A stretch of 64,000 nucleotides of DNA from Hormiphora californensis (lineage: Eukaryota > Animalia > Ctenophora), in assembly GCA_020137815.1 (NCBI GenBank), contig CM035350.1, forward strand, positions 7,502,001-7,566,000, written 5' to 3'. Position 1 is the stretch's first letter; every line of letters begins with the position of its first letter. The position numbers were made by a program, and so were the translations under genes. The notes under the pieces are model-generated. The model saw only the letters and a list, made by a program, of their open reading frames with translations. It searched no databases and was not told the DNA's origin. This document shows, in pieces, positions 20,596 through 62,143 of the stretch.

Positions 20596-21834
20596 GTCCC
20601 TCAACAGAGGAAGAACGAAAGCGAACAGTGGTTCTACACTATGAGACTCATGATAGGAGCCATGCCCACGAGATCCAACGAGGCCTGGCGACCCTTCATC
20701 ACCCCACCCTTCTCCACGATATTAATGGGGCTGAGGAGGAGAAATCCCTAAATCGGGCGATTGTGTCGTGTTACTGTTACACACTCTTCCTCTCTCGAGA
20801 CAACATCCCCCTCACCATTCACCAATTAGCCCTGGCTAAGTTGTGTCAACGGACGGTCTGTCTGGTTGTAAAAGAGGGCATCTTCTCTCTGTTCTCTAGT
20901 TTCTCCACCGAGATGAAGGTCCTAACGGCCTCCTGTAGGTGGGTGAGGGAGGGGGCCAGTATCGAGGAGGTCCTGGTACATGTTCCCAAGGTGGACATAT
21001 ACAGGTCCAAAGAGCATTTCCTGCACTGTCTCGATGGAAGGTCTGCCAGTGGTAATACCCATCCTGTGGGCCACAGGGGAGGGTTTTGGGACCGGCACTT
21101 TGCCAATGAGGAGGAGGTGCTGCTTAGCAATATCTTCAAATGCATCAAAAAGGACTACGAGTATGATTTTGTGGTTGTGTTTGGGGGTGCGACACAGAGT
21201 TGGGTTGCCAACGTCCTGCGACAATGGTGTTTCCATACAACATCTAACACCATATCCAAACAGTGTTATCGGAAGTTCCTTGCCCAGTATGGACCAACGG
21301 AGGGCTCTGGCAAGGAGGGCTGTGACACATTCTGGGAGTTGTGCAAGGCAAGGTTTGAGAGGTATGTGGTCCTACGGATGGTCTTCCAAGCTATCCAGCT
21401 CAACCCGACACCCAGCTATTCAACACATAACAAACATCTCAAAGGACGGAGACCACCTTTTCCAGGATATATCTGAGCTGCTCCAGGATGCGGACCCGGA
21501 TCTCCGGTGTACGGCGTGTGTCTGTCTGGGGCAAACAGGGAAGGCTGCCTTTATTGAGCAGGTCATGTCCCTGCTACATGACACAGATCGGCTGGTAAGG
21601 AAGTTTGCCTGTCTGTCCATATCCAGGCTGCTCGAGGATGACTCTGTCAGCGAGCAGGTCCAAGAAGGGGTGTTGTTGAGCCTCACAGGGGTATGGAGGA
21701 GAGACAGTGTCCAGGATGTGAGGCGGGCAGCATTACAGGCACTAATGGAGAGGGGTCACACGGGCATTCATCAGGGGATCAAGAGTGTCATTGATCTTGA
21801 AGCGGAACTTGATGAACTGGTGTCGTTCAACTAG
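20596..21834 (+). CDS. HEAT/ARM-repeat protein (main exon, one apparent frameshift near 21400); 5' exons probably at ~20014-20418
   Basis: Frame 20481-21476 hands over to frame 20980-21834, whose C-terminus has HEAT-like repeats (LLQDADPDLRCTACVCLG; LLHDTDRLVRKFACLSISRL; DSVQDVRRAALQAL). Acceptor 'tttgcattag' ends at 20595. Candidate start exon MGANNAKPDNF...SP|gt at 20014. Confidence 0.7.
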
Positions 21835-36037: not shown

Positions 36038-37103
36038 ATGTCTGCCTTTCCCGAGATCAAGTCTACCCACTCCCTGGTTGCTAAGCACGTAACCAAGGAG
36101 AAATGGGACAAGCTCTCCGGAATCACCACCAAGACCTCTGGATTCACTTTGGCCAAGGCCATTGCCTGTGCTGTTGAAGTTTGACAACCAGCACTGCGGA
36201 ATCTACGCTGGTGACAAGGACTCCTACAGCGACTTCGCTGATGTCTTTGATCCCATCATCCAGGAGTACCATGGAATCAAGGCCGATGCCAAGCACACCT
36301 CCGACATGGACTCTACTAAGATTGTGGGAAATGTGAACCCTGAGGCCCCTGTTAAATCTACCAGGATCAGGGTCGGCCGATCCATCAACGGATATGGACT
36401 GTCCCCAGGAATCACCAAGGATCAGAGGCTCGCTGTTGAACAGCTCTTCGCCTCTGCCTCTAAGAAGTTCCCCGAGGAGCTCGCCGGAGAGTACTACCCT
36501 CTGACTGGTATGGATGAGAAGATCCGACAACAGCTTGTTGATGATCATTTCCTCTTCGTGTCTGGAGACCCCAACCTGAAGGTCGCTGGAATGGAGCGAG
36601 ACTGGCCCGAGGGTCGAGGTATCTTCCACAACAAAGAGAAGACCTTCCTTGTGTGGGTGAACGAGGAGGATCAGCTCAGGATCATCTCCATGCAAAAGGG
36701 TGGTGATGTGAAGGGTGTATTCGAGCGACTTGCCCAGGGAATCAAGGCTGTTGGTGATTCTGTCAAGGAGGAATCTGGCCAAGACTTTATGTTGGATGAG
36801 AAATACGGATACATCCACTCTTGTCCCACCAATCTGGGAACCGGAATGAGGGCCTCCGTCCACATCGACCTACCCGGATGGACCAAGGATGGAGTTGACA
36901 AGCTGAAGGCTAGGTGCGAGGAGCTGGCTCTTCAGCCCCGAGGAACCCGAGGAGAGTCTGGTGGCCAGACTGGACACACCTACGATATCTCCAACAAACA
37001 TCGACTGGGATACTCTGAGGTGCAGCTGGTGCAGACCATGATTGATGGAGTGAACAAGCTCTACGAGGAGGATCTTGCACTCCAGAAGAAGCACGGAATG
37101 TAA
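36038..37103 (+). CDS. Arginine-kinase-type phosphagen kinase copy 1 (single domain; +1 frameshift at ~36177, error or pseudogene)
   Basis: ATG at 36038 with the same N-terminus as copy 2 (MSAFPEIKSTH). 'gttgaagtttgac' here versus 'gttgagtttgac' in the paralogs (1066 vs 1065 nt). Motifs WVNEEDQLR, CPTNLGT, RGTRGE intact. Confidence 0.88.
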
Positions 37104-37419
37104 TTTTAATGATTATAATAACATTTTGAGATGGCATTGACTGTTTCTCAACGCCCATATTTTGTAACTTATTGTTTAGGTCTCTAAACGGAAAAAGCTT
37201 TACCGGTTTTTGTGTAATTAATTCCATGTATTGCCTTTACAAAGCTATATAATTTTCCCGAAATTTAAAAAAATCAGTTTTCTTTTGTAAATACCTGTCA
37301 GGCCAAATGCTCTGTCCACGGTTCTCACACGCTCCATTTAAAAAGGCCAATGCTCTGACAGGTAAATATAACGGGGAGGAAGGTTTGTCGAGGGAAAAAG
37401 ATTGGCTTGATCTGCCGAT

Positions 37420-39170
37420 GTGAGCCACACACAATGTAGTGTGAGCCACACAAAATGTAGTGTGAGCCACACACAATGCAGTGTGAGCCACACACAATGT
37501 AGTGTGAGCCACACACAATGTAGTGTGAGCCACACACAATGTAGTGTGAGCCACACACAATGTAGTGTGAGCCACACACAATGCAGTGTGAGCCACACAC
37601 AATGTAGTGTGAGCCACACGCAATGTAGTGTGAGCCACACAAAATGTAGTGTGAGCCACACACAATGTAGTGTGAGCCACACACAATGTAGTGTGAGGCA
37701 CACACAACGTAGTGTGAGCCACACACAATGTAGTGTGAGCCACACACAATGTAGTGTGAGCCACACACAATGTAGTGTGAGCCACACACAATGTAGTGTG
37801 AGCCACACACAATGCAGTGTGAGCCACACACAATGTAGTGTGAGCCACACGCAATGTAGTGTGAGCCACACAAAATGTAGTGTGAGCCACACACAATGTA
37901 GTGTGAGCCACACACAATGTAGTGTGAGGCACACACAACGTAGTGTGAGCCACACACAATGTAGTGTGAGCCACACACAATGTAGTGTGAGCCACACAAA
38001 ATGCAGTGTGAGCCACACACAATGCAGTGTGAGCCACACACAATGTAGTGTGAGCCACACAAAATGCAGTGTGAGCCACACACTATGCAGTGTGAGCCAC
38101 ACACAATGCAGTGTGAGCCACACACAATGCAGTGTGAGCCACACAAAATGTAGTGTGAGCCACACACAATGCAGTGTGAGCCACACACAATGTAGTGTGA
38201 GCCACACACAATGTAGTGTGAGCCACACAAAATGTAGTGTGAGCCACACACAATGCAGTGTGAGCCACACACAATGTAGTGTGAGCCACACACAATGTAG
38301 TGTGAGCCACACACAATGTAGTGTGAGCCACACACAATGTAGTGTGAGCCACACACAATGCAGTGTGAGCCACACACAATGTAGTGTGAGCCACACGCAA
38401 TGTAGTGTGAGCCACACAAAATGTAGTGTGAGCCACACACAATGTAGTGTGAGGCACACACAATGTAGTGTGAGGCACACACAACGTAGTGTGAGCCACA
38501 CACAATGTAGTGTGAGCCACACACAATGTAGTGTGAGCCACACACAATGTAGTGTGAGCCACACACAATGTAGTGTGAGCCACACACAATGCAGTGTGAG
38601 CCACACACAATGTAGTGTGAGCCACACGCAATGTAGTGTGAGCCACACAAAATGTAGTGTGAGCCACACACAATGTAGTGTGAGCCACACACAATGTAGT
38701 GTGAGGCACACACAACGTAGTGTGAGCCACACACAATGTAGTGTGAGCCACACACAATGCAGTGTGAGCCACACACAATGTAGTGTGAGCCACACACAAT
38801 GCAGTGTGAGCCACACACAATGTAGTGTGAGCCACACAAAATGCAGTGTGAGCCACACACTATGCAGTGTGAGCCACACACAATGCAGTGTGAGCCACAC
38901 ACAATGCAGTGTGAGCCACACAAAATGTAGTGTGAGCCACACACAATGCAGTGTGAGCCACACACAATGTAGTGTGAGCCACACACAATGTAGTGTGAGC
39001 CACACACAATGCAGTGTGAGCCACACACAATGTAGTGTGAGCCACACAAAATGCAGTGTGAGCCACACACAATGCAGTGTGAGCCACACACAATGTAGTG
39101 TGAGCCACACACAATGCAGTGTGAGCCACACAAAATGTAGTGTGAGCCACACAAAATGCAGTGTGAGCCA
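37420..39170. repeat. 21-bp minisatellite (GTGTGAGCCACACACAATGTA), ~83 copies, with higher-order structure
   Basis: Direct observation. The 600+ aa ORFs in several frames are translations of the repeat. Confidence 0.97.
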
Positions 39171-40707: not shown

Positions 40708-41772
40708 ATGTCTGCCTTTCCCGAGATCAAGTCTACCCACTCCCTGGTTGCTAAGCACGTAACCAAGGAGAAATGGGACAAACTCTCCGGAATCACCACC
40801 AAGACTTCTGGATTCACTTTGGCCAAGGCCATTGCCTGTGCTGTTGAGTTTGACAACCAGCACTGTGGAATCTACGCTGGTGACTGGGACTCCTACAAGG
40901 ACTTCGCTGATGTCTTTGATCCCATCATCCAGGAGTACCATGGAATCAGTGCCGATGCCAAGCACACCTCCGACATGGACTTCAGCAAGATCACCGGAAA
41001 CGTGAACCCCAAGGCTCCCGTTCACTCCACCAGGATTAGGGTCGGCCGATCTATCGATGGATTCGGTCTGTCCCCCGGAATTACCAAGGAACAGAGGGTC
41101 GGAGTTGAGAAACTGTTCGCCTCTGCCTGCAAGAAGTTCCCTGAGGATCTCGCCGGAGAGTACTACCCTCTGACTGGTATGGATGAGAAGATCCGACAGC
41201 AGCTTGTTGATGATCATTTCCTGTTCGTGTCTGGAGACAGAAATCTAACTGTCGCTGGAATGGAGCGAGACTGGCCCGAGGGTCGAGGTATCTTCCACAA
41301 CAAAGAGAAGACCTTCCTTGTGTGGGTGAACGAGGAGGATCAGCTCAGGATCATCTCCATGCAAAAGGGTGGCGATGTTCTCGGAGTCTTCAAGAGGCTC
41401 GCTAGGGGAATTGGAGCTGTCGGAGACTCCGTCAAGGCCGAGTGCGGAAAGGACTTCTGTCTTGATGAGAAATACGGATACATCCACTCTTGCCCCACCA
41501 ACCTGGGAACCGGAATGAGGGCTTCTGTCCACATTGACCTCCCCGGATGGACCAAGGATGGAGTTGAGAAGTTGCAGGCTAGGTGCGAGGAGCTGGCTCT
41601 TCAGCCCCGAGGAACCCGAGGAGAGTCTGGTGGCCAGACTGGACACACCTATGACATCTCCAACAAACATCGACTGGGATACTCTGAGGTGCAGCTGGTG
41701 CAGACCATGATTGATGGAGTGAACAAGCTCTACGAGGAGGATCTTGCCCTCCAGAAGAAGCACGGAATGTAA
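40708..41772 (+). CDS. Arginine-kinase-type phosphagen kinase copy 2 (single domain, 354 aa, intronless CDS)
   Basis: ATP:guanido phosphotransferase signatures: GIYAGD, STRIRVGR, DDHFLF, WPEGRG, NEEDQLR, CPTNLGT, YDISNKHRLG. Confidence 0.95.
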   Translation: MSAFPEIKSTHSLVAKHVTKEKWDKLSGITTKTSGFTLAKAIACAVEFDNQHCGIYAGDWDSYKDFADVFDPIIQEYHGISADAKHTSDMDFSKITGNVNPKAPVHSTRIRVGRSIDGFGLSPGITKEQRVGVEKLFASACKKFPEDLAGEYYPLTGMDEKIRQQLVDDHFLFVSGDRNLTVAGMERDWPEGRGIFHNKEKTFLVWVNEEDQLRIISMQKGGDVLGVFKRLARGIGAVGDSVKAECGKDFCLDEKYGYIHSCPTNLGTGMRASVHIDLPGWTKDGVEKLQARCEELALQPRGTRGESGGQTGHTYDISNKHRLGYSEVQLVQTMIDGVNKLYEEDLALQKKHGM

Positions 41773-44519: not shown

Positions 44520-45780
44520 AATTTTCAATAATTTTTTACTGGGAAGAACTATTTTAGGTATACTTACAAAGGCAAAGAAATCAATACACACATCAGAACC
44601 GTACACACTAAGGACCCCACACAGCGTTTGCTGCAGCTAAGGGGCCCTGAAATCTAGATAGAAGGCTAGTAAAATACTGCAAAAGCCTCGTCACGGTAAT
44701 TGAAGTACTAAAGAGAGGGGGTAGAAATACCTGGTGGACTGGGCGGCTATCCCGAGGGTGGAGCAGCCTCATATCTCGGACTGTGAACATGGACAGAGTG
44801 GGGAGGGGTAGGGGGAGGGGTAGGGGGAGGGGAGGTGTATTGTGTACTAGAGAACGTTACTGGGTACAATGGACTCAATCAGGTGTTTCTTAGTGAGACG
44901 GACAAACTCAGTCAGTGAATCACTCTGTCTGATAGAGTAGGGCAGCTTATTCCACAAATCAGTGACTCGGTGAAAAAAGCTAGCCCTAAGAGCCCTATGA
45001 GTGTTCGTGTGGTAGGCAGACATGAACACTAGAGTCGTTTTGTCACGACCCTCACGAATGTCACTATTCTGACGGGTGGCTCTGAGTGTGCTGGGGTTGA
45101 TCGGTTGAATGTACTGAGGGACAGTGATGGTAATCATACCATACACAATCTTGTAAAACAATCTAAGATCGTAAAACTCGAACAGCTGCTTAAACGGGAG
45201 AAGGTTCAAACTCAGCAGATGATCCACATACTCGTCATTTGTATACGAGGCAAGTGGTTCATTTCTGATCCATTTCACAACCCGTTTTTGCAGCAGTTCA
45301 AGTGACCTCAGACTACCAGCATTCACACACGACCAGACCTGGTTACAGTGCTCAACTAACGACCTCACCATGGACAGATACAGTGTTCTCTTACAAGAAC
45401 TCCTACTGAGGAAATAACAAGTCCTGCGGAGCAGGTTGAACTTAAACGACATGGATGTGATAATAGAGTCACAGTGGGAGTTGAAATCTAAAGTGCTGTT
45501 GATGACAATACCCAGGTCACGCTGGTTAGTGACATACTCCAGAGCCACCCCTCCAAGAGAGTAGAAGTACTTGTGGAAGGGGAGGCTGCTGAAAGGGTTA
45601 GATGACTGTGTGGTAGGGCTGATGACACTCAGAACCTGGCACTTAGCTGGATGAAACCGCATCATGCTCCGAATTGACCAATCATACAAGGCATCAATTG
45701 ACTTCTGAAGTTCAAAATGATCACTCATACTGTCTATTCTGCGCCAGATCTTGGTGTCATCAGCGTACAGGGAGATGTAT
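44520..45780 (-). mobile_element. 5'-truncated CR1/Jockey-group LINE (RT C-terminal part plus 3' UTR)
   Basis: Minus-strand frame begins ISLYADDTKIWR (~45740-45778) and continues as the 293-aa ORF (F.PAKCQVL, QRDLGIVI, LYLSMVRSLVE, LELLQKR, FFHRVTDLWNKLP). 3' boundary approximate. Confidence 0.88.
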
Positions 45781-46216
45781 GCTTCGCCTAATAATTTTTG
45801 TTAAAACGGAAGCTTGGCTAACCACTAAGTCATGCAGAACAGGCCAAACCTTTTTCCTTTTAGTCTCCCGGGCCCCGGTTATCACGCAAGACCGATGCAA
45901 AAAAGTGAAAAGTAAATAGTTAAAACGGCCATCTTGGAAATTAAAAAAATGGGACTTTTTTATTCTTAACTTTTTAAAGGAAACAGCAATCCGACACCGG
46001 GGTCTCAGATAATAAACGCACACCACGATCGGTCACAGAGTGAACCTGCAAAGTGGTACAACACCGAAGTGTCGAGAGTACCCTCGTATCCATCATGGAA
46101 CCCGGTATTGTCGGATTGCTGTTTGAAGTAAAGTAAATATATCTTCACGCCTCACACTGTACAAAATATAAATTCTAAAAAAGGGGGAGCCCTAACAAAT
46201 GTTCAAATGAGGTTAA

Positions 46217-46837: not shown

Positions 46838-47402
46838 GGTGCATGATGGACTTTCACTCGCGAACCGGATGCGGAGTCTGAGGTATTCTATTGCTTTTAA
46901 TGGAACGCGCAAACTAGTTGGTTTATACGCTGCATTCATTTCCGGGGTCATTTTAATTTTTGCACTGCGCGCCGCGAAAATTCATCGAGCCTCGACATGA
47001 AAATTTTGCTCTCCAAAAAGTGTGCACTCTCCAAAAATCTCGCTCTACATTTTCGGACCATTTCTTTTTTCTTCCTTTTTTTTCATCCCATTATTTAATG
47101 AGAAAACCCTCTGCCACCAGGCCTCTTAACTTCCACAGCCTTTGTGTACACCGAGTTCATGAAACGTCAAACCAAACAGGGCCTTTAAAAATTAACTTTC
47201 TAAAACAGCAATCATGTCTAAAATAGGGAGACCACTGACCAGTGTTTTGACTCCTCAACAAATCAGTGTATAATACCCCATGTGACAAATAATATCGAAT
47301 GCCAAGGCCGGCATATCCGATAACATAACATGGTTCCCTACCAGCTGCCACAAACTTTGTCAGGCAAATTGATCTAACCAGTTCTTTTGTTTAGGAGCAA
47401 AT

Positions 47403-49682
47403 ATGGGTTGTGGATCGTCTCAAGTCGCTGCTGTAAGTTAACCTTACGATAAATAAGTCCATTGTTTGCTTTTTACTCAAATTACTAAAATTCCAACAAA
47501 GCAAAAGGCGATCTAACTTTAATCTCAATCTCAGGGTGCCAATGGTGGAATCTCTGACTTCCCCACAATCAAGTCTACCCACTCCCTGGTTGCTAAGCAC
47601 GTCAACAAGGAGAAATGGGACAAGCTCCACGAGCACTCTACTGCCACCTCTGGATTCACTTTGGCCAAGGCCATTGCCTGTGCTGTTGAGTTTGACAACC
47701 AGCACTGTGGAATCTACGCTGGTGACTGGGACTCCTACAAGGACTTCGCTGATGTCTTTGATCCCATCATCCAGGAGTACCATGGAATCAGTGCAGATGC
47801 CAAGCACACCTCCGACATGGACTTCAGCAAGATCACCGGAAACGTGAACCCTGATGCCCCTGTCCACTCCACCAGGATTAGGGTCGGCCGATCTATCGAT
47901 GGATTCGGTCTGTCCCCCGGAATCACCCAGGAACAGAGGCTTGGTGTTGAGAAACTGTTCTCCTCTGCCTGCAAGAAGTTCCCTGAGGAGCTCGCTGGAG
48001 AATACTACCCTCTGACTGGTATGGATGAGAAGGTCCGACAGCAGCTTGTTGACGATCATTTCCTCTTCGTATCTGGAGACAGAAATCTGACTGTCGCTGG
48101 AATGGAGCGAGACTGGCCCGAGGGTCGAGGTATCTTCCACAACAAAGAAAAGACCTTCCTTGTGTGGGTGAACGAGGAGGATCAGCTCAGGATCATCTCC
48201 ATGCAGAAGGGTGGTGATGTGCTTGGAGTCTTCAAGAGGCTTGCCCAGGGAATCAAGGCTGTCGGAGACTCCGTCAAGGAGGAATCTGGAAAGGACTTCT
48301 GTCTTGATGAGAAATACGGATACATCCACTCTTGCCCCACCAACCTGGGAACCGGAATGAGGGCTTCTGTCCACATCGACCTTCCCGGATGGACCTCTCA
48401 CGGTGTTGACAAGCTAAAGGCAAGGTGTGAGGAGCTGTCTCTGCAGCCCCGAGGAACCAGAGGAGAGTCTGGTGGCCAGACTGGCTTTACCTACGATATA
48501 TCCAACAAACATCGACTGGGATACTCTGAGGTGCAGCTGGTGCAGACCATGATTGATGGAGTAAACAAGCTCTACGAGGAGGATCTTGCATTCCAGAAGA
48601 AGTACTTTGAGTTCCCGGAAATCAAATCTACCCATTCCCTGGTTGCTAAGCACGTCACTAAGGAGCGATATGAGAAACTTGCCCGACACACTACTGCTAC
48701 CTCTGGATTCACCCTATACAAGGCCATTGCCTGTGCTGTTGAGTTTGACAACCAGCACTGCGGAATCTACGCTGGTGACTGGGACTCCTACAAGGATTTC
48801 GCTGATGTCTTTGATCCCATCATCCAGGAGTACCATGGAATCAGTGCAGATGCCAAGCACACCTCCGACATGGACTTCAGCAAGATCACCGGAAACGTGA
48901 ACCCTGATGCCCCTGTCCACTCCACCAGGATTAGGGTCGGCCGATCTATCGATGGATTCGGTCTGTCCCCCGGAATTACCAAGGAACAGAGGGTCGGAGT
49001 TGAGAAACTGTTCTCCTCTGCCTGCAAGAAGTTCCCTGAGGATCTCGCCGGAGAGTACTACCCTCTGACTGGTATGGATGAGAAGATCCGACAACAGCTT
49101 GTTGATGATCATTTCCTCTTCGTGTCTGGAGACAGAAATCTAACTGTCGCTGGAATGGAGCGAGACTGGCCCGAGGGTCGAGGTATCTTCCACAACAAAG
49201 AGAAGACCTTCCTTGTGTGGGTGAACGAGGAGGATCAGCTCAGGATCATCTCCATGGAAAAGGGTGGCGATGTTCTCGGAGTCTTCAAGAGGCTCGCTAG
49301 GGGAATCGGAGCTGTCGGAGACTCCGTCAAGGCTGAGTGCGGAAAGGACTTCTGTCTTGATGAGAAATACGGATACGTCCACTCATGCCCCACCAACCTG
49401 GGAACCGGAATGAGGGCCTCCGTCCACATCGACCTCCCCGGATGGACCGCTGAGGGAGTTGACAAGCTGAAGGCCAGGTGCGAGGAGCTGGCTCTTCAGC
49501 CCCGAGGAACCCGAGGAGAGTCTGGTGGCCAGACTGGACACACCTATGACATCTCCAACAAACATCGACTGGGATACTCTGAGGTGCAGCTGGTGCAGAC
49601 CATGATTGATGGAGTGAACAAGCTCTACGAGGAGGATCTTGCCCTCCAGAAGAAGCAGGCCGAGACCCCTGCCGCTGAATAA
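47403..49682 (+). CDS. Two-domain (contiguous dimer) arginine-kinase-type phosphagen kinase with N-terminal MGCGSS acylation leader, ~725 aa
   Basis: Exon 1 47403-47432 (MGCGSSQVAA|gtaagt), intron 47433-47534 (...aatctcag), exon 2 47535-49682 in frame with the 673-aa ORF. Two complete kinase domains joined at FQKKYFEFPEIKSTH. Confidence 0.92.
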
Positions 49683-60184: not shown

Positions 60185-60306
60185 ATAACTCAGTCATTTC
60201 TTGGCCAATTTGCAAAATCGTGGGCTCATTGGAAAGAAGACAATGAGCTCTTACAAATGAGCCTTTCCAATGAGCCCAAGGTTTATAAAATTGGTCAAGA
60301 AATGGA
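60185..60306. mobile_element. Hairpin MITE remnant truncated by the adjacent LINE
   Basis: catttcttggccaattt...tgggctcattggaaag and ctttccaatgagccca...aaattggtcaagaaatg form inverted arms that end where LINE homology begins. Confidence 0.6.
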
Positions 60307-62143
60307 GTGTTTCCAACGATCAAGAATTCCTATGGGGACAAGGATTCTCTGACGAACTACCGACCGGTGTCTAATTTGTCGTTTATCTCCAAACTTCTGG
60401 AGAAGGTAGTTCTTGAGCAACTCAATGCTTATCTCACCACTAATGCACTTTTGAATAAACACCAATCTGGTTATAGGGTTGGTCATAGCTGTGAGACCCT
60501 TCTCATGGGAATGTTCGATGATCTTCTTCAAGAAGTGGATAAGGGTAATGTCATTGGCCTCTTTCTCCTTGATATGAGCGCTGCCTTTGACACGGTGGAT
60601 CATGGGAAGCTGAAGGATGTACTTGAGAGGAGGTTTGGAGTATGTGGATCTGCCCTAAAGTGGTTTTCTAGCTATCTTCAGTCGCGGAATTTCAGAGTCA
60701 ACGTTGGTGGAAAACTTTCGAGGATTATTGAGCTTGTTTGTGGAGTTCCCCAGGGATCTCTACTGGGGCCTGTCTTGTTCCTGTTGTATATTGAAGAGCT
60801 CCAGGATTTGATCAAGCCGTATGGTCTTCGGATCAAGTTGTATGCGGATGACTCCCAACTTTACATTAGTCTTGTACCTACGGATGAGGATAACTGGAAA
60901 CTGGCCAAAACGAGGATTGAGGGGTGTTTGTCAAGTGTGAAGGCGTGGATGAACGATCACTGGCTTAAATGTAATGAAGCGAAAACTGAGTTCCTGCTTC
61001 TTGGAAAGAGCAGTGCCCTGGATAAGATGGAATTTGTGCCTACTGTTGATTTTGGTGGTGTGGAGATTTCTCCGATGGAGTGTACAGGAAAGACAGGAAA
61101 AACACTTGGGGTTTACTTGGACACGAATCTATCTATGGAGAGACAGGTAAACAGCGTGAAGAGGCAGTGTGGAATGCTCTTGAAGAACCTGTGGCAGGTG
61201 AATCGCAGCCTGGATATTCCTACTAAAATCCTCCTGGTCAAGCAACTGATTGTTTCTCGGCTTGACTATTGCAACATCCTATACGCTGGATTGCCAAAGA
61301 AGCTTCTTGAAAGCCTTCAGAGGACATTGAACTCGTGTGTGAGGTTCATCTATAACCTTCATGGACATCAAGATGACTATTCTCAGTATCTTAAGGGCAC
61401 TCATATCCTACCTATGGAGCAGCGTGTGGAATTCAAGGCATGCTTGATGGCGTTTAAAATTGTTCATAACCTAGCCCCGGATTATCTCTGTGACCAAGTA
61501 CCAGTTGAGGACTTGGAGGCTGTTCGAACCACCCGTGGAACTGCAACGCCTGATCACTACAAGCTTAAGTATCCTAAGCTTTCGAGTATTAACGCCAACT
61601 CCAAGTTGAGAAGGAGGAGACCGTCTGTCTTCCTACCTGAAGTGTGGAATGAGCTCCCCCTGGAGCTTCGATCAGTTGAGTCAGTGGATCTGTTCAAGTC
61701 GAGGTTAAAGACAAGATTGTTTGTGGAAGCATTCGGAGCCAGCGGAGGATGAGGTTCCTTGTTTCGCCTGCTTTCATCAGGTATTTCGCCTAGCTTGTAT
61801 TTATTTTCTTTTGGTTCTGTTTTACCGCTCATGGTAAGGTTTTTATTGGCATTTTATAGCATTTTTTTCGAGTGAAGCACGAGTGGAAATGATATTTACA
61901 GACATTTTCTACCATCTAATGTGGACGTTTTTCCATATATATCAGTCTGTTATCTCATCTGGACAGTTATGTGAGCCGAGAGTGTTTAAATCAGTTTAAT
62001 TCAGTGTTTTGGGTCTACCATTTTTTGATATACGTCTTTAAGTAACCGCTCAGATCGCCTCTCAGTGTCAGTGTCAGTTCTACTACACTGGCCCTGTGAG
62101 GTAAGGGCGGCATATAAATAGACATATTATTATTATTATTATT
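60307..62143 (+). mobile_element. 5'-truncated L2/CR1-clade LINE with an uninterrupted RT frame (481 aa), 3' UTR and (ATT)n tail
   Basis: NYRPVSNLSFISKLLEKVV, LDMSAAFDTVDH, GVPQGSLLGPVLF, LYADDSQLY, SRLDYCN, WNELP; stop at 61752; tail ~62126-62143. Confidence 0.95.

Follow-up and report, generated by a model that had tools for sequence, protein, structure and literature searches.

Introduction

The closest described counterparts of the gene studied here are flagellar phosphagen kinases held by a lipid anchor and kinases with two fused domains. Trypanosoma brucei possesses three arginine kinases, 85–99% identical to one another, one of which is myristoylated, Unc119-dependent and flagellar (bioRxiv 2020.05.07.083568; PMC4517888); flagellar targeting of this isoform, TbAK3, requires both Gly2 and Unc119 (bioRxiv 2020.05.07.083568). 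In sea-urchin sperm, a contiguous creatine-kinase trimer acts in a phosphagen shuttle (PMC3080659), and the flagellar enzyme is reported to be myristoylated, according to the title of Quest 1997 as cited in PMC3080659. Anthopleura and clams have arginine kinases with two domains (PDB; PMC6429109).

A window of 64,000 nucleotides of the ctenophore Hormiphora californensis (assembly GCA_020137815.1, contig CM035350.1, positions 7,502,001 to 7,566,000 of the forward strand) was analysed; all coordinates below are those of the window. It contains a gene for a phosphagen kinase with two domains, which is likely to be an arginine kinase. Gly2 and Cys3 are predicted to bear a myristoyl and a palmitoyl group that would tether the enzyme to a membrane, the likeliest being the membrane of motile cilia or flagella, a reading for and against which we judge the balance to be even.

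The similarity to T. brucei lies in a set of similar isoforms (TbAK1, TbAK2 and TbAK3, the last being Tb927.9.6210), of which one is myristoylated, binds Unc119 and is found at the flagellar membrane, and another is cytosolic. TbAK3 differs by its lysine-rich leader (7 basic residues), by its arthropod-like arginine-kinase lineage (the T. cruzi entry 2J1Q reached 273 bits, no better than creatine kinases) and by being an arginine kinase with an N-terminal extension for which the accessible text describes no micro-exon; it is presumably a single-domain enzyme. The sea-urchin flagellar creatine kinase shares with the ctenophore protein, in which acylation is predicted, the features of a contiguous multi-domain, myristoylated, membrane-associated enzyme at the distal end of a shuttle, but has three domains, a creatine substrate and lineage and a mitochondrial creatine-kinase partner, whereas the ctenophore enzyme has two domains, a loop of arginine-kinase length and a predicted second acyl site. 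Contiguous dimers are also formed by the arginine kinases of Anthopleura (PDB 4RF6-4RF9, 46% identity) and clams and by the taurocyamine kinase of Schistosoma (4WO8), which belong to a separate lineage. The predicted domain orientation differs from that of these dimers (rmsd about 12 Å over both domains), with a model pTM of 0.69 that makes this difference unsure. To our knowledge, these two-domain kinases have no acyl leader.

Results and Discussion

Transcript structure and N-terminus

The first exon of the gene (47395..47432, + strand) measures 38 nt and comprises 8 nt of 5'UTR and 30 coding nt, which read MGCGSSQVAA from the ATG at 47403 and encode the predicted Gly2 myristoyl and Cys3 palmitoyl sites; the MGCGSSQ motif is also present in the orthologues P0190 and P0191. 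A 102-nt phase-0 GT..AG intron (47433..47534, + strand) separates it from exon 2 (47535-49682, 716 codons including the stop), and the spliced product has 725 aa. An earlier note, made from the sequence alone, had suggested a 30-nt micro-exon followed by this intron. The RNA junction that it asked for was found (47432>47535, in X2 and X8), and its 30 coding nucleotides were right; the exon, however, is 38 nt long and is bounded on its 5' side by a trans-splice acceptor.

The joint 47432>47535 was present in two of the four RNA runs compared with 47250-47660. In a 126-nt contig of X2 (study P2), 40 and 63 letters flank the joint with zero mismatch. In the contig of X8 (study P5), the short side has 23 letters and the sequence later drifts into that of another copy and folds back; this contig looks partly chimeric and supports the joint more weakly than X2. 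Runs X5 and X6 gave, in the same interval, only sequence of other organisms or other copies. The spliced form came from bulk plankton RNA, and contig depths cannot rank tissues.

The X2 contig also joins the ctenophore spliced leader to the acceptor AG at 47393..47394 (+ strand). Upstream of 47393 it carries 23 non-genomic letters which, together with the AG, are the last 25 nt of the published spliced leader of Hormiphora californensis (PMC8527503), as compared by eye; the leader sits 8 nt upstream of the ATG at 47403 and was not found in the 64-kb window with up to 2 mismatches allowed. Since the leader is joined at 47394 and the next ATG is that at 47403, MGCGSSQVAA is fixed as the real N-terminus. 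The N-terminus of the metatranscriptome protein P0196 is the exact peptide of the spliced junction. Skipping of the micro-exon would put the first ATG in the wrong frame and leave the Met at 47817, about 95 codons into exon 2, as the first one in frame, a start that would remove most of the substrate-binding domain.

Gly2 after the true Met, Cys3 and Ser/Thr at position 6 form a dual acylation motif, kept in three ctenophore lineages. In simulated 64-kb DNA, MGxxx[S/T] with a donor appeared about once per sequence (mean 1.0), the window having 2, and MGCxx[S/T] with a donor appeared in 1 of 60 simulations. The generic motif is therefore not significant alone, and the case rests on RNA and conservation. 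The leader-bearing gene is a real, spliced gene that ctenophores have conserved and that public models annotate wrongly.

Domain organization

Exon 2 begins with a short Gly-rich spacer (47535..47558, + strand; low pLDDT at model residues 1-5), in which the Ile codon at position 6 aligns with the start Met of the monomeric paralogues. It continues with phosphagen-kinase domain 1 (47559..48602, + strand), with the catalytic motifs RIRVGR, NEEDQLR, CPTNLGTG and RGTRGE intact, a three-residue interdomain junction (48603..48611, + strand) and phosphagen-kinase domain 2 with an 8-residue tail and the stop (48612..49682, + strand), the two domains having 93% amino acid and 92% nucleotide identity. 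Pfam assigned PF02807 and PF00217 twice each to the 725-aa product. The interdomain junction was bridged by RNA-library contigs of two studies (X1, 48560-48748, with 1 mismatch; X4, 48564-48684); RNA libraries may include DNA, and these contigs are still independent of the genome assembly. The two-domain fusion is real, confirming the contiguous dimer that had been proposed from the letters alone.

An alignment-based model of exon 2 showed two well-folded domains (pLDDT 88.9), with TM values to single-domain structures of up to 0.92. The NEED motif, the CP(S/T)N(I/L)GT cysteine and the nucleotide-binding arginines occur in both domains and in monomer B. By domains, motifs and predicted fold, the encoded protein is an ATP:guanido phosphotransferase (phosphagen kinase).

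Kinase family and substrate

The specificity loop aligned without gaps to those of five solved arginine kinases, having the length typical of arginine kinases, and reads DNQHC (within FDNQHCG) against the typical LDSGV. In the numbering of arginine kinase (PMC5598448, for 62-68, 193, 225 and 271), positions 62-65 are Asn-Gln-His-Cys instead of Asp62-Ser63-Gly64-Val65, which lowers the probability of arginine use and does not exclude it; the solved arginine kinases of Stichopus and Anthopleura offer examples of His at 64 and Cys at 65. The equivalents of Tyr68, Tyr89, Arg193, Glu225, Cys271 and Glu314 are all kept. The numbers used for Tyr89 and Glu314 are those which we take to apply to arginine kinase.

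By sequence and by fold, the best PDB match was the two-domain arginine kinase of Anthopleura, with 46% identity. Identities to solved arginine, creatine and glycocyamine kinases are similar (41-46%), and therefore the fold does not fix the substrate; the N-terminal domain scored highest with arginine kinases. In a quick tree the subfamily stands clearly apart from the remaining phosphagen kinases (support 100, stem 1.63). No characterised or assayed member was found in the literature searched, and a 50%-cluster search and the ESM Atlas yielded generic phosphagen kinases only; medusozoan phosphagen kinases are likewise reported without substrate assignment (PMC13679545). On these grounds the enzyme is likely an arginine kinase, and we consider it quite probable that its substrate is arginine.

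Gene cluster

Three phosphagen-kinase genes, all on the + strand, are present in the window: the monomeric paralogues A and B and the leader-bearing dimer. Paralogue A (36038..37103, + strand) has one extra base near 36177 (36176-36179) that breaks the frame in the assembly, being either a pseudogene or an assembly error. Paralogue B (40708..41772, + strand) is intact and encodes 354 aa; its start, MSAFPE, follows an acceptor AG by one base, and its predicted sequence showed neither an acylation motif nor a targeting peptide. An X2 contig joins the spliced leader directly to the monomer start sequence common to A and B, one base before the ATG.

The earlier note had counted two cytosolic monomers and, with the dimer, a complete two-compartment shuttle in one cluster. 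Monomer B (40708-41772) agrees with this, being intact, and A (36038-37103) does not, being frameshifted in the assembly. No targeting peptide was found on A or B and no mitochondrial isoform in the cluster; with A frameshifted and this isoform missing, the cluster does not seem to encode a complete shuttle, and that part of the claim is not supported. Four arginine kinases are reported in Pleurobrachia (PMC4685580 Table 1), which leaves room for a mitochondrial isoform outside the cluster.

Other elements of the window were also recorded. Between A and B, 83 copies of a 21-bp unit (37419-39170) yield spurious long open reading frames, and between B and the dimer an open reading frame without Pfam match (44847-45800, - strand) looks, by eye, like the C-terminal portion of a non-LTR element. 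Positions 60289-61752 (+ strand) contain the remnant of a reverse transcriptase (RVT_1, E 1e-27), and positions 20947-21834 (+ strand) an open reading frame with HEAT repeats (PF13646, E 4e-12). No Rfam families were found in the 64-kb window.

Orthologues and evolution of the cluster

MGCGSSQ is identical in Hormiphora, Mnemiopsis (KAL5262349.1) and Bolinopsis (XP_063690409.1), and the Hormiphora domains are 90-93% identical to the proteins of the latter two. Together with the spliced leader, this identity demonstrates the ctenophore origin of the window, which the earlier note had raised as a possibility. The Mnemiopsis protein starts with MGCGSSQAAA and has two domains and a longer linker. 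The Bolinopsis model has four domains, in the order monomer, monomer, MGCGSSQAAS at residue 708 and dimer, and probably joins three genes, whose order is that of the Hormiphora cluster; the leader and, judging from this model, the gene order are conserved in lobate ctenophores. The linker between leader and domain 1 is divergent, with 110 (Mnemiopsis) and 95 (Bolinopsis) residues versus 18 in Hormiphora.

Other ctenophore-type records vary at the N-terminus. In P0007, P0011 and P0199 the gene call seems to continue through an intron whose end has the same phase-0 position; P0011, a dimer, begins with MGRRAS. P0007, P0022, P0200 and P0203 begin within the intron or at an internal Met, the last three at the Met that would come first in frame if the micro-exon were left out. 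No leader was seen in P0015 and P0010, which are divergent two-domain forms. In P0196 the leader precedes only one domain, a mosaic of domains 1 and 2; this record may be a collapsed assembly or a real one-domain allele, and its single-sequence fold had a pLDDT of 40. Comparison of the leader plus 38 residues with longer proteins gave 2 matches among 4 candidates and no new leader, which is weak evidence.

The first 32 residues of Hormiphora domain 1 have 2 differences from Mnemiopsis domain 1, versus 8 from the protein's own domain 2 and 7 from monomer B, and this greater closeness to Mnemiopsis domain 1 than to its own paralogues indicates that the leader-bearing gene is an old orthologue. 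Residues 33-342 instead track species, with 4 differences between Mnemiopsis domains 1 and 2 and 23-24 between Hormiphora and Mnemiopsis. Copies in the cluster are 88-95% identical in DNA and linked by identical tracts of 138-179 nt. In a tree of 65 rows, built by a quick method only and with copepod-type rows labelled by spliced leader alone, the four Hormiphora domains grouped with P0196 (support 92) and the ctenophore rows formed one side of a branch with support 33. The cluster is likely old; gene conversion would keep its cores alike, with the leader and the first helix remaining specific to each gene. The spacer Ile and the aligned start Met of the monomers both come after an acceptor AG, suggesting that the trans-splice site of a monomer became the cis acceptor of the leader intron. 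The leader on L006, a transcript that nearly matches a Bolinopsis domain, is of another variant, which makes a cydippid of the Hormiphora/Pleurobrachia type the more likely source of the window.

Relatives in the plankton

The subfamily with the FDNQHCG loop comprises members from ctenophores, calanoid copepods and the krill Meganyctiphanes, among which multi-domain forms are frequent. The Hormiphora domains are 78-82% identical to eight transcripts with the copepod leader (L011, L018, L027, L030, L040, L045, L048 and L055), the calanoid copepod spliced leader being that of PMC4664967 Table 1, and 76-78% identical to krill P0043, yet their identity to solved phosphagen kinases is only 41-46%. 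So high a similarity between distant phyla is a hint of either gene transfer or extreme constraint. Among 368 proteins and 80 loci, the MGCGSS leader was found only in ctenophore-type records; 'merc' proteins with a mid-domain MG start, taken as a database prefix, were excluded from the count of myristoylation motifs. Other members of the subfamily differ in having a C-terminal CaaX (P0037) or hydrophobic N-terminal extensions.

The C-terminus of L051/P0037, and those of P0220 and P0240, all multi-domain kinases, combine a basic patch with CaaX, a prenyl-type route to the membrane. In P0102, P0107, P0085 and P0369 the subfamily is fused to 6-phosphofructo-2-kinase domains (krill) or a peroxiredoxin-type domain (metatranscriptomes); these fusions could be real or chimeric models. 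In L032 (positions 1-130), a leader resembling that of ctenophores, with the end AATTTGAG, is accompanied by an N-terminal extension that is hydrophobic and rich in Gly. This transcript, unrelated to the cluster, fell not among the ctenophore rows but with L039 and L058 (support 99), and is a candidate mitochondrial isoform of the subfamily.

Predicted acylation and location

In the proposed mechanism the initial Met would be removed and N-myristoyltransferase would then acylate Gly2, a modification that we regard as very probable. The small residues 3-5 would make the protein a high-affinity cargo of UNC119, released by ciliary ARL3-GTP, and palmitoylation of Cys3, predicted with somewhat less assurance and still probable, would trap the kinase at the ciliary membrane. 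The chances that the kinase ends in cilia or flagella appear about equal to the chances that it does not, and a location specifically in the comb plates is doubtful. The anchored kinase would regenerate ATP from phosphoarginine near dynein, under the membrane, an unanchored monomer would recharge the phosphagen in the cell body, and a single lipid anchor would carry two active sites.

No large residues are present at positions 3, 4 and 5 (Cys, Gly, Ser), in accordance with the rule reported for UNC119 cargo, for which Myr-GCGCSS binds at about 2 nM (PMC6179904). LCK, which begins GCGCSS, is a UNC119 cargo bound for a non-ciliary membrane (PMC6179904), and TbSMP1-1 is one located at a non-ciliary membrane (bioRxiv 2020.05.07.083568). 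For trypanosome calflagins, acylation is reported as insufficient alone and a lysine patch as required (PMC4517888), and the first 25 residues of the Hormiphora protein contain 1 K/R (Mnemiopsis 2, Bolinopsis 4). The lack of a lysine patch of the calflagin/TbAK3 type and the presence of similar leaders at non-ciliary membranes count against the ciliary reading. To treat MGxxxS with Cys3 as a ciliary signal, as had been done initially, was an overstatement, the motif being a general membrane anchor and not cilium-specific. The convergence with flagellar phosphagen kinases that had been suggested agrees with the precedents of TbAK3 and the sea-urchin enzyme.

An acylated kinase at a non-ciliary membrane, namely the plasma membrane of muscle, neurons or the bodies of comb cells, where it would be a local ATP buffer serving ion pumps or the cortex, is a less likely reading that nevertheless carries some weight: MGC starts are common plasma-membrane anchors, as in LCK, the leader has no basic patch and a myristoylated Unc119 binder of trypanosomes remains at the cell membrane; against it, the known N-acylated phosphagen kinases found in the sources are flagellar and residues 3-5 match the high-affinity UNC119 class. 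The animal precedent for a myristoylated multi-domain kinase is a sperm-tail enzyme (PMC3080659; Quest 1997), and an isoform of the sperm flagellum only, analogous to the sea-urchin flagellar creatine kinase and without a role in comb plates, is accordingly conceivable and in our opinion improbable.

The anchor may also be as predicted and the guanidino substrate another than arginine, which we consider rather unlikely. The atypical FDNQHCG loop, the distance of the subfamily from other phosphagen kinases and its having, like the medusozoan kinases (PMC13679545), no characterised member found all point that way, as does the RefSeq name of the Bolinopsis model, 'creatine kinase, flagellar-like'; that name is automatic, however, and the loop length and the equivalents of Tyr68, Tyr89, Arg193 and Glu314 are of arginine-kinase type, His 64 and Cys 65 have their solved arginine-kinase examples and a clam arginine kinase with Asp62 replaced is on record. 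Finally, the micro-exon or the two-domain fusion would be an artefact of assembly or prediction if copies 88-95% identical in DNA had been misassembled, and P0196 does have one domain; but the RNA joint carries the spliced leader, the domain junction is bridged in two studies and the same architecture recurs in Mnemiopsis, Bolinopsis and ENA contigs, by which this explanation is largely refuted and has become extremely improbable.

Joining the preferred reading of a ciliary anchor with the evolutionary proposals gives a wider and more speculative scheme, which is unlikely to hold in all its parts. A phosphoarginine shuttle would power the giant comb-plate cilia; its ciliary end would be the dually acylated dimer, an invention separate from those of sea urchins and trypanosomes and delivered via UNC119/ARL3; the leader exon would have been gained by the switch of a monomer's acceptor from trans to cis; gene conversion would keep the cores uniform; and an isoform of the L032 type would be the mitochondrial end.

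Significance

Each ingredient of this gene has a precedent, in TbAK3, in the sea-urchin flagellar creatine kinase or in the two-domain arginine kinases, and the combination predicted for ctenophores had none in the literature searched. No description of an acylated ctenophore phosphagen kinase was found in the literature searched, a weak absence with most subscription journals and comb-plate proteomes outside its scope; one supplementary file of a paper on Mnemiopsis tentacles and comb rows contained none of five kinase terms. Annotations are also affected: in Bolinopsis, the RefSeq model seems to run three genes together, hiding the leader at residue 708, and several public gene calls of orthologues miss it. 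KAL5262349.1 is a clear Mnemiopsis orthologue, against the zero arginine kinases listed for Mnemiopsis in a published table (PMC4685580 Table 1).

The ATP supply to dynein along the very long cilia of comb plates is an obvious physiological question, and no paper on it was found in the literature searched. The gene is a named and conserved candidate for this supply. If the proposal is true, ciliary phosphagen kinases with a lipid anchor would have arisen independently once more, in an animal lineage that branched off early.
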